Below, piece by piece: positions 17,140-64,000 of a DNA stretch of 64,000 nucleotides (position 1 is its first letter; every line of letters begins with the position of its first letter). The translations under genes were made by a program, and so were the position numbers. This DNA comes from Candidatus Dormiibacterota bacterium (GTDB lineage: Bacteria; Chloroflexota; Dormibacteria; Aeolococcales; Aeolococcaceae): positions 133,596 to 197,595 of the forward strand of contig CAVWRW010000002.1 in the NCBI GenBank assembly GCA_963757475.1, given 5' to 3'. The notes beneath the pieces were generated by a model that had not been told where the DNA came from, made no database searches, and was given only the letters and a program-made list of their open reading frames with translations.

Positions 17140-18094
17140 CAGTATCTAATCCTCGGATCAACGACGGTGTACAGAAGGTCGACGACGAGGTTGGCGATGC
17201 CGATGAGCAGCGCGTACACGGTGAACACCGCCACGGTGACGTTGTAGTCCGCCCCGAGGATGCTCTCGACGAATTCCTTGCCCAGCCCCGGAATGCCAAA
17301 GATGTTCTCGATGATGACGCTGCCTGTGATGATGCTGATCACCAGCGGGCCGAGGATGCTGATAACCGGGATGAGCGCATTGCGCAAGGCATGGCGGATG
17401 GTGACGACGCGCGTCTTGAGCCCCTTGGCTCTGGCCGTGCGTATGTAGTCCTGCTGCAGCACCTCGAGCATCGCAGCGCGCGTGATCCTCGTTACCTGCC
17501 CGGAGGTGTAGAAGCCGAGGATGATCGCCGGCAACGACAACTCCACCAACGTCCCGTACGTGCCGGTCCATATGGCGGGTACGAGATGACGCCGTTGGTG
17601 AGGTTGGGGAGGAAGTAGCTGAAGATGAGGACGCCGAGTCCGGCGAAGACGAAGCTCGGCACGCTGTACCCGACCACGGCGATCGAGGTGAGCGTGTAGT
17701 CCACCCAGGAGTTCTGGCGCATTGCGGCAATAACGCCGAAGACGGTGCCCAGACCGATGGTGATAAGCAGTGCGGTGCCCCCGAGCTCGGCGCTGACACT
17801 CAGCTCACGCATCACGAGCGGCGTGATCGGCAAACCACGGATCTGGAAGGACACGCCGAGGTCGCCATGAATGGCGTTGGTGAGGAAGCTCCAGTACTGC
17901 ACGAGGATGGGCCGGTCCAGCCCGTACTCGTGGAGGAGCAGTTGCAGCGCCTGCCCATGCACACGCTGGCTCTCGAAGGCGTTGCCCGGCAGGCTGTGGA
18001 CGGTGACGAAGACCAGGAAGGAGACGGCGACGAGCGTGAAGATGATCAGCGCCAGTCGCTGCGCGATGTAGATGAGTGTTCCGCGGGTCAGCAT
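17139..18094 (-). CDS. oppB: Oligopeptide ABC transporter permease OppB (frameshift near 17550)
   Basis: YGLDRPILVQY, GDLGVS, DYIRTARAKGL, HALRNALIP, VDPRIRY. Confidence 0.93.
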
Positions 18095-18128
18095 CTACCT
18101 TGAACCTCTCATATATCGAAAGGCGGAA

Positions 18129-18153
18129 GGCGCCCGGCTCGGTGCCGGGCGCC
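18129..18153 (-). terminator. GC-rich stem-loop between oppA and oppB (mRNA stabiliser or partial terminator)
   Basis: Perfect 10-bp stem GGCGCCCGGC/GCCGGGCGCC with a 5-nt loop just after the oppA stop; only a weak U-rich tail on the minus strand. Confidence 0.55.
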
Positions 18154-18182
18154 CTCTCATTCGGTTCTAGTGGCGTTGCTCT

Positions 18183-19983
18183 CTAGTGCGAGAGGATCTT
18201 GATCTCATTCCAGTAGTGGTCGAAGGCGGTGTTCGAACCGGCTCCCTTCACGTACGACTGGATGAGGAAGTTGCCCACGGAGTAGTACAGCGGGATGTAG
18301 ACGACGTCCTGCTGCAGGATCTGCCCGAGCTGGTTGTACAGCGGGAGCGCTGTCGTCAGCGGCTCTGCGTCGGCCTGCTTGAGGACGCTGTCGTAGGTGG
18401 GGTCATCGAACCCGCTGGTGTTCGCGCCCGCGGAGGTGGCGTAGACGCCCCAGAGGTTGTCGTACCAGTCCTGCGGGTGGTTGTAGTCGAACTGCCAGCC
18501 GTCACGCGACATCACGTACTTGCCCGTGAGCCGGTTGTTGATGAAGATCGACGCATCCGACACCGAGTTCAGGTTGACCTTGATGCCCAGGTTGGTCTGC
18601 CACTGACTTCTGCAGGTACTCGGCGACGCTCTCGTTGAGGCTGCCGGCGTTGTACGAGTAGGTGAGGTTCTTGGTCAGCGCGCCGGTCGGGTCGTACTGG
18701 TGGAGCAGCGACTTGGCCTGGGTCGCGTCGAACTTGGCGAGCGGGTCGCTGTTCGGTCCGCCGTTGCCGACGAGGCCGCTGGTGATCAGACCGCCGGTCG
18801 CCGCCGAGCAGATGAGGTTGTGGCACACCGTCGTGGCCAGGCCCTGCTTGTCGATCGCGAGGTCGAACGCGAGGCGGAGGCCCTTCGCAGCGGCCGATTC
18901 GCCGACGAACGGTCCACCCGTGGACGGGTAACCGATGTTGAAGCTCAGCCAGGTCGTGCGGCCCTTCGGCTGGGTCAGCAGGTGCGGCTTCTCGCGCGAG
19001 TTGGCCTGGATCGCCAGGATGTTCGCCAGCGGGACGATCCGCTGTCACCACCGTAGCCGACGATGTCGTAGCCCTTCTGGAAGAAGGCATCGACGGTTGT
19101 CGGTGCCGTCGAGGGGTCCTTGATGTCGATGTTGATCGTCTTCAACGTCGGCTTCGGAGAACCCCACCAGTTCGGCACCTGCGGTGAACGTCATCGACTG
19201 CTTGGGGGTGTATGCGGTGAGCTTGTACGCGCCGGTGCCAACGAGGTTGGCGGGCGTCTGCCACCAGTTGACGGGATCAACACCCGGTGCTTCGATGACC
19301 TTCTGGTCGACGATCGCGCCGACGGTGCCCTCGAGGGTCCATGCGGTGAGGCACCAGCCGCAACCGGCCGAGAGCTTGATCTGGACGGTCTCAGGATCGG
19401 TGGCTGTGAGGCCGCTCATCATGAATGCGGAGTTGCCTGCCTTCAGCTGGGTCTCGATGTTCGCCTGGAAGGTGGTGGGCGTGCCCGAGGACGGCGGGGA
19501 GCCGGCCGCGGTCTGCACTGCGCTGTAGCCCTGTGATCGCGCTCAGGATGGACGAATACGCGCCGTGGAGTGCGACCGCACGGTTCCACGAGTAGCAGCA
19601 CGTCCTTCGAGGTGACCGCGTCACCGTTGGAGAACTTGGCCGCGGGATTCAGGTGAATCGTGTAGGTCATACCGTCCGAGGAGATCCCGCCGTTGGCCTG
19701 CGTCGGCACGGTCGAGGCGATATCCGGAACGATGTTGAGGTTGTCGTCGAACCGCCAGAGGTTGTCGAACACGTTCTGCATGAGCTCGGTGTCGACCTCG
19801 GCGTCCATCTCGCCGGGATCCCACGTGCCGGGGTCCTGGAAGACGGGGAACTTCAGCACCTGTGACGACGCCAGCGCGCCGCCTGACGATGTCGTCGGTG
19901 CTCGTGCTACCGCACGCTGCGGCGGTGAGCAGGCCAAGCACTCCCAGGCCAATCCCACCAATGGTCAATTTGTTCGGTCGCAA
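18183..19983 (-). CDS. oppA: Oligopeptide ABC substrate-binding lipoprotein OppA (family 5 SBP), several frameshifts
   Basis: TTG start 19983 with GGGAGG; lipobox LTAAC; DGMTYTIHLNPAAKFSNGDAVT; VGTGAY; DGWQFDYNHP; IPLYY. Confidence 0.88.
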
Positions 19984-61893: not shown

Positions 61894-62904
61894 TCACGCA
61901 GCAGGCTGTGCCGCCGCGAACCGTCCGACCTCTCCACTGCCGAATTCGCTGAACCACATGGTGCCATCGGACGCAGACACCAGATCCTCGGGTTGTGCGA
62001 GCGGCGTGTCGACCTTATAGCGGACCACATCACCCCGCGACGTGACGCGATCGATGGTGCCGGCTCCCTGCTCAGCAATCCACACCGTGCCCGTGTTGTC
62101 GAGCGCGACGCCCGTTGGTTGATTGAACGTGGTTGGCAGCAGCGTGATGTGCCCGCTCGTATCGATGTGACCCGCACGGCCGCCCTGTTCCTCGACGAAC
62201 CACAGGTCGTTGCCGGTCCCGTCGACGATGCGCAGGACACCGACGCCGGCCGACAGCGCGTACTGCGCCACGACCCCGGTCGGCGTCACGCGCGCGATGC
62301 CGTTGCTCTCGGCAACCCAGAGGTTGCCGTCGGGCCCTTCGACGAGGCCCACAGGTGCCGAGCCACCGCCGAGGTCCGCAGCCTTTGTCACTGCGCCGGT
62401 GGTGCTGACACGGTCGAGCACATTGGTGCCGTTCTCAGTGACCCACAACGAGTTGAGCGGTCCAACACAGATGCCGAGCGGCGTGCTGCCCGCCTCGAGC
62501 GGCACGCGCAGCAACGCACCGTCACTCGCGATGCGATCGACCTCATTCGCGTCACGATCGGTGAACCACATTGATCCGTCGGGTGCGCGGACGATGCCGA
62601 GCCCCGGCGCACCCGGTCGCGGCAACTTGATCTCGCTGACCTGACCGCTCGATGTGACCCGGGCGACGGCGTCACCACCCTCCTCGGTGGTCCACAACGT
62701 GCCTTGCGAGTCGAGTGCCACGCCGGTCGGGGATGCGTTCTTCGTGGGCAGTGTCACGTATGTCGCGTGCAGACCGTGCGGTGCTGCGCTTGGCGCGGGA
62801 CTCGACGACGCCGGCGTCGTCGATGATCCGCAGGCGGCGAGCACAGCGGTTGCAACCAACGTCACTGTTGCGACGACCCCACGGGGAGCGCTATGCCGCG
62901 CCAC
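61894..62904 (-). CDS. Vgb (virginiamycin B lyase)-like beta-propeller lipoprotein
   Basis: Lipobox LAAC; about 7 repeats of P.G...PDG.(L/M)WF(T/V)E. Confidence 0.75.
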   Translation of the reverse strand: MARHSAPRGVVATVTLVATAVLAACGSSTTPASSSPAPSAAPHGLHATYVTLPTKNASPTGVALDSQGTLWTTEEGGDAVARVTSSGQVSEIKLPRPGAPGLGIVRAPDGSMWFTDRDANEVDRIASDGALLRVPLEAGSTPLGICVGPLNSLWVTENGTNVLDRVSTTGAVTKAADLGGGSAPVGLVEGPDGNLWVAESNGIARVTPTGVVAQYALSAGVGVLRIVDGTGNDLWFVEEQGGRAGHIDTSGHITLLPTTFNQPTGVALDNTGTVWIAEQGAGTIDRVTSRGDVVRYKVDTPLAQPEDLVSASDGTMWFSEFGSGEVGRFAAAQPAA

Positions 62905-63251
62905 GCAATGCGCCCTTGCGAGTCATCCAGGTCAGCGTCATGATGTCGAGCCTGCCGGCGACAACTGCGGGGTCCTCGCGTGCGAGACGTTTTGCCTCAT
63001 CGAGCGGCACGCAGATACACGCACAGTCCTCGCCAGGATTCATCGGGCTGATCGACGAAACGGTCCCGCCGCCAGCATGAGCCCGCGCTGGCGCATCGCC
63101 TCGAGATGACCGAGATGTCTTGCGCTGGAGCGCCGCACCCTCGTCGGTGTCGTCGTACTCGGCGGCGCGCGGTCCGCGGATCAACATCACCAGTGCGTAC
63201 TCGTCGAACTCGGTCGGCGGGTCGGCTTCGGGCCTCGGACGGAGTGGTCAT
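62891..63251 (-). CDS. YCII-related protein (frameshifted)
   Basis: Joined frames: EFDEYALVML...HLGHL...MLAAGPF...EAKRLAREDPAVVAGRL. Confidence 0.72.
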
Positions 63252-63721
63252 CGAACGGTTGCGGCCGCATTGGCCGTAGGTCTGCGCAGCTTGATGCGGC
63301 GTGGCCGCCGCGTGAGTTCGCCGCCGCAGTTCATGCATTTGTATCCGAGTGCATCGCCGCACCGCTCGCAGTACGTGCACTCGTAGCTGCAGATGAAGGC
63401 GATGCCGTTTGGCGTCAGCAGCACGTGGCACTTCTCACACTCGCGTCGCATTTCCAAGCCCAGGAACTCCTTCAACAGAACGGTGAGATCCGGCAATTCC
63501 GGTTCAAGACGAAAGCCGTCGCCGGCCACCGACTTGACGAGGCCGGCGGTCCGCAGACTGGTGAGGTGCTCGTGCACGGTCGACTTGGCCAGTCCCAGCT
63601 CACCGCTGATCTGGCCCACCGACGCCGACCCCGCCGCGAGGCGACGCAGGATGCGCAGCCGCGTGCCATCGCCCAACGCTCGGTACAGACCGATCAGTCG
63701 CTGGTCCGGCGCGGTCGCCAT
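63248..63721 (-). CDS. ArsR/SmtB HTH fused to a DUF1272-like 8-Cys domain
   Basis: ALGDGTRLRIL...LAKSTVHEHL..LR.AGLV, then LEMRRECEKC...ICSYECTYCERC...CMNCGGELTRRP. Confidence 0.85.
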   Translation of the reverse strand: MATAPDQRLIGLYRALGDGTRLRILRRLAAGSASVGQISGELGLAKSTVHEHLTSLRTAGLVKSVAGDGFRLEPELPDLTVLLKEFLGLEMRRECEKCHVLLTPNGIAFICSYECTYCERCGDALGYKCMNCGGELTRRPRRIKLRRPTANAAATVR

Positions 63722-63728
63722 GAGCGGC

Positions 63729-63761
63729 ATTCTAGCGAAATCGTTCGGCGTTCACCGAACG
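63729..63761 (-). promoter_or_regulatory. TAGAAT -10 box plus inverted repeat CGTTCGG-N6-CCGAACG (candidate ArsR operator)
   Basis: -10 at 63729-63734, 7 nt before ATG 63721; inverted repeat at 63742-63761. Confidence 0.6.
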
Positions 63762-63801: not shown

Positions 63802-64000
63802 TCAAGTGGTCAGATAGCGTTCCAGGGTCGGTGCGACCCACGCTGCGACGGTAGCGGGGGCTGCGGACGCGAGCGGCTCTACGCGAAGCAGATATCGCGC
63901 CACCGCGAGTCCGACGAGTTGGCTGCCCACCAGCGTCGCGCGCAGGGGGGCGTCGGCGGTATCGAGCACCATCGCGACTCGGCCGATCAGCGCTTCGCTG
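63802..64000 (-). CDS. C-terminal part of a TetR family regulator (runs off the window edge)
   Basis: Manual translation RATLVGSQLVGLAVARYLLRVEPLAS...WVAPTLERYLTT*, typical of an actinobacterial TetR C-terminal domain. Confidence 0.75.
   Translation of the reverse strand, partial: SEALIGRVAMVLDTADAPLRATLVGSQLVGLAVARYLLRVEPLASAAPATVAAWVAPTLERYLTT

Follow-up and report, generated by a model that had tools for sequence, protein, structure and literature searches.

The window analysed here is a stretch of 64,000 nt from a Candidatus Dormiibacterota bacterium (GTDB lineage Bacteria; Chloroflexota; Dormibacteria; Aeolococcales; Aeolococcaceae), corresponding to positions 133,596-197,595 on the forward strand of contig CAVWRW010000002.1 in assembly GCA_963757475.1. 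At window positions 61894-63761 lies an operon block, entirely on the minus strand, in which the first gene encodes an ArsR/SmtB-type winged-helix repressor fused to a DUF1272 domain, the second a YCII-family protein and the third an exported beta-propeller lipoprotein. A perfect inverted repeat, the probable operator, precedes the first gene. Judged by sequence, the fusion protein appears to be a genuine, recurrent and previously undescribed variant of the ArsR-family autorepressor, with a conserved predicted operator. The initial annotation of this block was right about the fusion, the cysteines, the gene overlaps and the repeat, and overlooked that the YCII gene is frameshifted. As for its interpretation, the fusion, autoregulation and a role of DUF1272 as an input module gained support, while an antibiotic response and an internal translation start did not.

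The fused regulator gene and its probable operator

The regulator gene occupies 63248-63730 and encodes 160 aa from the ATG at 63730; translation more likely starts at the second ATG (63721), which would give 157 aa. Pfam recognizes both halves of the product. The DNA-binding core matches HTH_5, the ArsR helix-turn-helix (HTH) family, at residues 21-67 (63530-63670; E 1.1e-12, 48 bits against a cut-off of 22), and residues 92-145 (63296-63457) match DUF1272 (PF06906; E 5.2e-19, 68.5 bits against a cut-off of 25.3). The DUF1272 match (68.5-71.1 bits) spans profile positions 2-57 of 57, and a conserved RPRR tail follows the cysteine pattern. No stop codon separates the two domains within the open reading frame (ORF), so that, as the initial annotation had it, the ArsR part runs directly into an eight-cysteine DUF1272. 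The cysteines are residues 98, 101, 114, 118, 121, 124, 132 and 135, spaced C-x2-C-x12-C-x3-C-x2-C-x2-C-x7-C-x2-C.

The ArsR part itself offers nothing that resembles a known sensing site. Read directly, residues 1-97 contain no cysteine, in agreement with the earlier claim that an obvious alpha3 cysteine site is missing. The only histidines of that region (53 and 55) sit in the recognition helix, and alpha5 (residues 80-90, PDLTVLLKEFL) has no His/Asp/Glu cluster or metal site. None of the recognized ArsR inducer sites, i.e., alpha3 CxC, alpha5 Asp/His/Glu, alpha4C or a BigR-type cysteine pair, is found in the fusion protein. An AlphaFold2 (AF2) model (mean predicted local distance difference test score, pLDDT, 69) has the complete ArsR topology, with helices at 10-19, 22-32, 38-45, 49-61 and 80-90 and a wing at 65-75. 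With Foldseek, residues ~10-90 match CzrA, HlyU, SmtB, BigR and NolR in the PDB with probability 1.0, template modelling (TM) scores normalized to the target of 0.65-0.73 and 26-34% identity. Because the ArsR topology fills residues ~10-90, DUF1272 would follow directly after the alpha5 dimerization helix.

In a search of 5.8 billion proteins, 19 clusters with 60-91% identity combined an ArsR-type HTH with DUF1272; they stem from JGI, ENA, NCBI and Logan assemblies, and one is from a Candidatus Dormiibacterota metagenome-assembled genome (MAG). The same continuous ORF, with no stop between the domains, is present in all 19 clusters and in ten genomic loci, which we used for comparison (the window and the loci L093, L095, L091, L001, L086, L092, L003, L004 and L090). 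In the alignment of fusion homologues, the junction LKEFLGLEMR and all eight cysteines are invariant, while the junction codons differ between clades. Frameshift errors do exist in the present assembly, and an indel could in principle have joined what are really two genes, one for an ArsR protein and one for DUF1272. However, since the fusion recurs across independent projects, assemblies and assemblers, with an invariant protein junction encoded by different codons, this explanation is effectively refuted. The ArsR-DUF1272 fusion is genuine and recurrent in soil bacteria. Within its own genus it is accessory: the unit is present in 3 of 25 species genomes, and in none of 16 from the sister family.

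Two further observations concern the architecture. In P0126 (also in P0015, P0016 and P0018), an N-terminal extension of ~260 aa without a Pfam match precedes the ArsR and DUF1272 domains. Long tblastn ranges in Pseudomonas and Pseudescherichia (L065, L074), which could be taken for the same fusion, were spurious; stops intervene, and DUF1272 stands alone there.

It had also been proposed that the free cysteine domain could be made from an internal start. The sequence in question, AAGGAG followed by TTG GAA ATG, is indeed present inside the fusion gene, where AAGGAG supplies Lys-Glu codons. In the clade with 67-69% identity the junction reads CTC AAG or AAA GAG … CTC GAG ATG; the TTG is not kept, nor is the Shine-Dalgarno-like hexamer (L004). 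Conservation thus gives no support to the internal start, which is at most a possibility for the close clade.

The inverted repeat lies where it had been reported, at 63742-63761, as a perfect 7-6-7 palindrome, CGTTCGG-TGAACG-CCGAACG. All ten loci have its arms immediately upstream of the fusion gene, with at most one mismatch per site, and its spacers vary (TGAACG, TGAATG, TAAGCA, TGAAAG, TGAAGA, TGACTA, TAGTTG, TTAACT or TTGATG). In the 2.54 Mb genome the perfect palindrome occurs exactly once, and one further site deviates from it at a single position. The latter, CGTTCGAATGCTCCCGAACG, is at C11:6840-6859 in a context that looks coding or antisense. The conserved palindrome is strongly suggested to be an autoregulatory operator, and with it the autoregulation proposed in the initial annotation; as a binding site it is a candidate. 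The operator is repeated in two loci, with three overlapping copies in L004 (6061-6116) and two in L090 (1439-1476), spaced by 18 nt, which suggests that several dimers may bind cooperatively in this distant clade.

A -10-like hexamer, TAGAAT, can be read by eye at 63729-63734; the second ATG (63719-63721) lies 7 nt downstream of it. A hexamer of this kind (TAGAAT, TAAACT, TACACT or TACAAT) is found in the six closest loci, with 5-6 nt between it and the end of the repeat and 7 nt between it and the start codon, which in the window is the second ATG (63721). This arrangement, again read by eye, suggests a leaderless or near-leaderless promoter with its -35 and spacer region under the repressor. 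No Rfam match was found in the region.

The downstream genes and the state of the assembly

In the intact relatives L093 and L095, the regulator (157-160 aa) is followed by YCII (118-119 aa, ATGA overlap) and a Vgb-family protein (322-345 aa). The L093 fusion protein is 95% identical to that of the window and has a TetR gene upstream, as in the window; L095 shares with the window an aldo-keto reductase gene downstream. L001 and L091 have the same gene order with a damaged propeller gene, shortened by a ~560-nt 5' deletion in L001 (6808-7254) and, in L091 (2247-3159), broken in two by the loss of 38 nt. Other loci depart further. In L003, L090 and L092, of the 67-69% clade, YCII is divergent from the operator region; in L003 and L004 the propeller gene comes directly after the regulator; and in L086-L089 the regulator stands alone, with YCII and the propeller gene both absent. 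YCII is the most constant partner, adjoining the fusion gene in 8 of the 10 contexts, and the Vgb-family gene is downstream in 7 of the 10. Cargo genes are thus often lost while the regulator and its operator persist.

In the window, the YCII-family gene (62891-63251) is frameshifted, with a 2-nt gap at ~63231-63233 and extra bases at ~63118, ~63057 and ~63013. The initial annotation had the fusion gene overlapping the YCII gene by ATGA. The overlap is there (63248-63251), but the frame that it opens reads nonsense and stops at 62997, while a second ORF (62891-63190) holds only both ends of the YCII protein. Neither single-frame ORF of the window gives a match to Pfam YCII (PF03795); the threshold is reached only when the frame-shifted pieces are read through, with 26.1 bits against a cut-off of 24. 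Intact, ATGA-coupled orthologues of 118-119 aa are found in L001, L091, L093 and L095 and score 32.7-40.5 bits. These four loci agree with one another in frame and served as the reference for the window indels.

Assembly error is the likeliest cause of these breaks, since rpoB in the same assembly is split too, over three frames of 501, 474 and 361 aa (C11:60031-63275, outside the window), and rpoC next to it forms a single intact frame of 1462 aa. Because the essential rpoB cannot be a pseudogene, the assembly must have local clusters of indel errors. In the window, an Opp-type solute-binding protein gene (SBP_bac_5, 17492-19044, minus strand) also looks fragmented, into ORFs of 201, 164 and 181 aa, beside intact permease and ATPase genes, and is probably another such cluster. 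We therefore hold with good confidence that the YCII gene is broken by the assembly and not in the organism. A true pseudogene, in an operon that is decaying in this lineage, is unlikely but has points in its favor. All four frame-breaking indels of the operon block relative to L093 fall inside YCII, with none in the 483-nt regulator gene or the 1011-nt propeller gene; the propeller gene shows real-looking decay in L001 and L091; the P0004 clade lacks both genes; and the unit is rare in the genus. On the other hand, apart from the rpoB and Opp cases, four indels are many for natural decay at a substitution divergence of ~7%. Frameshift errors such as those of this MAG can mimic pseudogenes or fusions, and caution is needed in reading either.

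Two side observations bear on the quality of the sequences. Two extra bases specific to the window, at ~63058 and ~58364, are both a T before CG(N)CGATC, in GTT[T]CGTCGATC and ACT[T]CGCGATCG; the inserted T may be a systematic basecalling error beside a methylated motif, with two cases only. In addition, a CHASE3-HAMP-GAF-GGDEF gene (~56.6-59.3 kb in the window) shows several single-base indels between the window and L093. It forms a single ORF of 642 aa in L091 (4236-6164) and is divided into 350 and 314 aa in L093 (6108-8091). It follows that the long-read assemblies of the relatives are frameshifted as well.

The third gene (61894-62904) encodes an exported lipoprotein of 336 aa, a seven-blade beta-propeller that belongs to the Pfam Vgb_lyase family (PF24684, E 1.5e-66). 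Its GTG start at 62904 overlaps the upstream TAG (62891-62893) by 14 nt, as had been noted before, and the corresponding overlap is 14-26 nt in intact relatives. The N-terminus, MARHSAPRGVVATVTLVATAVLAAC-G (…AVLAAC-G), carries the lipobox L-A-A-C with Cys25 at 62830-62832 and continues into a Ser/Pro-rich linker. We took as a lipobox a signal peptide followed by [LVI][ASTVI][GAS]C. Such a lipobox is present in the window protein and, as LAAC, LAGC, VSAC, MASC or MAAC, in nine orthologues with 52-90% identity.

The claim that this is a Vgb-like lipoprotein holds for the lipoprotein and for the family; activity as a Vgb enzyme is not supported. Vgb itself (2z2n, 2z2p) is the best sequence match in the PDB (E 7e-44) and shares the seven-blade propeller and the Pfam family. 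Residues 228, 268 and 270 of 2z2n, read from the alignment, are His, Glu and His; His228, Glu268 and His270 are said to be the catalytic and Mg-binding residues of Vgb. In a global alignment, these positions fall on T264, Q304 and E306 of the window protein, where QPTG and QPED motifs are common to the orthologues. The NCBIfam models for Vgb(A) and Vgb(B) score 158.7 and 170.1 bits, far below the cut-off of 600. Because the catalytic residues are absent, the scores are far below the cut-offs and a lipoprotein signal is present, the protein is predicted to be a conserved exported lipoprotein and not a cytoplasmic streptogramin lyase. For the same reasons, the earlier suggestion of an antibiotic-response unit found no support. 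An antibiotic-induced resistance operon built around a streptogramin B (virginiamycin B) lyase would account for the strong Vgb_lyase match, the PDB match and the label "virginiamycin B lyase" that JGI gives to orthologues, but with the His/Glu/His residues replaced by Thr/Gln/Glu, and with a conserved signal that would place the protein outside the cytoplasm, we regard it as very improbable. Such labels on the neighboring lipoprotein are probably wrong as resistance-gene calls.

Farther upstream, a TetR-family gene (TetR_C_16, 63802-64000 and beyond, minus strand) is oriented like the regulator, and its end is separated from the regulator by 71 nt. L093 retains only an 89-aa fragment of it, and elsewhere it is not conserved beside the unit.

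DUF1272 as a domain family

DUF1272 is a very conserved small domain without an assigned function or a solved structure, and in the searchable literature it is mentioned just once, in passing. A profile that we built from 88 domain sequences of many phyla matched 1553 representative clusters at 50% identity, 932 of them with E ≤1e-10. Among the best 150 of the 1553 clusters, most are stand-alone proteins of 57-130 aa, which agrees with the initial statement that the domain usually stands alone. Fourteen columns are invariant in the 88 sequences, including the eight cysteines, ICS-x-ECT-x-C and an Arg-Pro pair in the basic tail.

No sequence relative of DUF1272 was found in the PDB. A domain-only AF2 model reached a pLDDT of 80.6. 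Its best Foldseek match is an archaeal 30S ribosomal zinc ribbon (9fhl_a, TM 0.64, E 0.009), followed by the ZZ domain of p62 and the RING domains of SIAH1, TRIM, RNF8, TRAF6 and PML (TM 0.5-0.6, E 0.04-0.3). The RING consensus is C-x2-C-x(9-39)-C-x(1-3)-[CH]-x(2-3)-C-x2-C-x(4-48)-C-x2-C, and the cysteine spacing of DUF1272 agrees with it. Accepting E up to 10, Pfam returned only weak matches to DZR, RIM2a and HIT zinc fingers. DUF1272 is likely, though unproven, to be a binuclear cross-brace finger.

The domain is also found in other company. Besides HTH_5 plus DUF1272, the architectures confirmed with Pfam are Trans_reg_C plus DUF1272 (Eremiobacterota); LytTR plus DUF1272; DUF1272 followed by a membrane region, His_kinase (PF06580) and HATPase_c, a LytS-type arrangement (Terriglobia); DUF1272 followed by SnoaL, ABM, GDSL, 4HBT (twice) or Cupin_2; and tandem DUF1272 proteins of 117-124 aa (P0043, P0044). 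That DUF1272 is joined to DNA-binding domains of three kinds, and also to LytS-type histidine kinases, fits a regulatory or input module; the initial annotation had suggested a metal, redox or electrophile sensor module.

Possible roles of the fused domain

As an overall explanation, we favor, with moderate confidence, an autorepressor that carries DUF1272 as an input module and acts on its own operon. The protein would be a one-component regulator with a complete ArsR/SmtB winged-helix fold (alpha1-alpha5) and without the canonical ArsR metal sites. Its DUF1272 domain, behind alpha5, would most likely form a ZZ/RING-like cross-brace around two metal ions, probably zinc. Presumably as a dimer, the regulator would bind the palindrome CGTTCGG-N6-CCGAACG, 5-6 nt before the -10 of a leaderless promoter, and thereby repress its own operon, which in the intact relatives comprises the regulator, YCII joined to it by the ATGA overlap, and the exported Vgb-family lipoprotein. 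A thiol-reactive oxidant, an electrophile or a change in metal supply would modify the metal-thiolate centers or cause their loss, and the altered centers would disturb the adjacent alpha5 dimer helix, so that DNA is released. DUF1272 is the only plausible sensing part of the regulator, and since the domain has repeatedly been recruited to signalling proteins, the input role is plausible but unproven. We infer DNA binding, repression, metal content and the existence and nature of a signal; whether that signal would be a metal, a redox change or an electrophile is conjecture.

Several observations weigh against this explanation, at least in part. The whole protein narrowly misses the NCBIfam HTH_metalloreg model (51.9 bits against a cut-off of 55), and a sigma-70 consensus scan did not find a full promoter. 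For DUF1272 itself, no RING or ZZ Pfam match appears even at E up to 10, and the fold matches are weak (E 0.009-0.3). Moreover, the fusions include enzymes (SnoaL, ABM, GDSL, 4HBT, Cupin_2), and stand-alone DUF1272 genes have no conserved functional neighbors among 141 flanking ORFs at ~75 loci, where lineage-specific housekeeping genes (PGM, LepA, thiolase, TauE, SucC) are found. Eight cysteines that are invariant across phyla would also be expected of a purely structural zinc site. Given the enzyme fusions and the stand-alone copies without conserved neighbors, the data agree just as well with a generic role, structural or in interactions, and enzyme fusions together with universal cysteine conservation would fit a constitutive zinc-dependent interaction module equally well.

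Many RING and ZZ domains are constitutively metal-loaded structural or interaction modules. DUF1272 could likewise be such a module, serving oligomerization or protein-protein interaction and sensing nothing, in which case the regulator would answer a small ligand or a partner such as YCII, or would be a plain autorepressor. The resemblance of the model to the dimerizing RING domains of TRIM, RAG1 and TRAF6 and to peptide-binding ZZ domains speaks for this, as do the promiscuous fusion to unrelated enzymes, the tandem proteins and the stand-alone copies. However, the domain is recruited where input domains usually sit, at the C-terminus of three types of DNA-binding domain and at the N-terminus of a histidine kinase, and the ArsR fold is predicted to have a dimer interface of its own (alpha1, alpha5); we therefore see a structural module as a possible but less probable alternative. 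That DUF1272 is a zinc ribbon which binds nucleic acid, and so adds to the contacts of the regulator with DNA or RNA, is improbable in our view. It would explain why the ribosomal ribbon is the best fold match, and it would suit the RP(R/K)R basic tail, which is invariant or nearly so, and the weak sequence similarity to zinc-ribbon RNA-binding proteins. Yet all of these matches are non-significant, the membrane-kinase and enzyme fusions are hard to reconcile with it, and a simple 20-bp palindrome fits a winged-helix dimer alone.

If the input-module explanation is extended beyond this locus, DUF1272 could be a widespread and so far unrecognized prokaryotic ZZ/RING-like metal-thiolate input domain, which couples the activity of ArsR-, OmpR- and LytTR-type regulators, LytS-type kinases and small enzymes to the thiol, redox or metal status of the cytoplasm. 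We put this forward only tentatively. Were it true, the input role could be proved most simply with the ArsR fusion, which has a defined 20-bp operator. In any case, a regulator in which DUF1272 alone is a candidate for sensing amounts, together with a defined operator, to a ready assay. Once it is known what DUF1272 binds or senses, thousands of proteins could be annotated, and the signalling repertoires of ArsR, OmpR, LytTR and LytS proteins would gain a new input module.

How the fusion protein relates to known systems can be seen domain by domain. With ArsR/SmtB proteins such as CzrA, SmtB, HlyU, BigR and NolR it shares the alpha1-alpha5 winged-helix fold, the HTH_5 match and a palindrome at its own promoter. 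Unlike them, it has no alpha3, alpha3N, alpha5 or alpha4C metal site and no BigR/HlyU cysteine pair, and it adds a 57-residue, eight-cysteine DUF1272 after alpha5. In the literature that we found, there was no characterized ArsR family member with DUF1272 and no description of an ArsR regulator with a zinc-ribbon tail. Relative to Pfam PF06906, the match is full-length and has all eight cysteines, but most members of the family stand alone, whereas in the fusion protein it forms the C-terminal part of a transcription factor. The ZZ domain of p62 and C4C4 or C3HC4 RING domains have a cysteine spacing that DUF1272 fits and a fold that its model weakly resembles, and differ in that neither has a significant sequence or profile match to DUF1272. 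The nearest functional precedent is MsvR of methanogens, in which an ArsR-type winged HTH is followed by a C-terminal, cysteine-bearing V4R domain and DNA binding is redox-sensitive (PMC3729527). MsvR is archaeal, V4R is unrelated to DUF1272, and homology to the fusion protein is confined to the HTH, over which the NCBIfam MsvR model gives a weak match (E 2.4e-6); what the two have in common is an ArsR-type DNA-binding domain followed by a cysteine-containing C-terminal domain that is proposed to act as a redox sensor.

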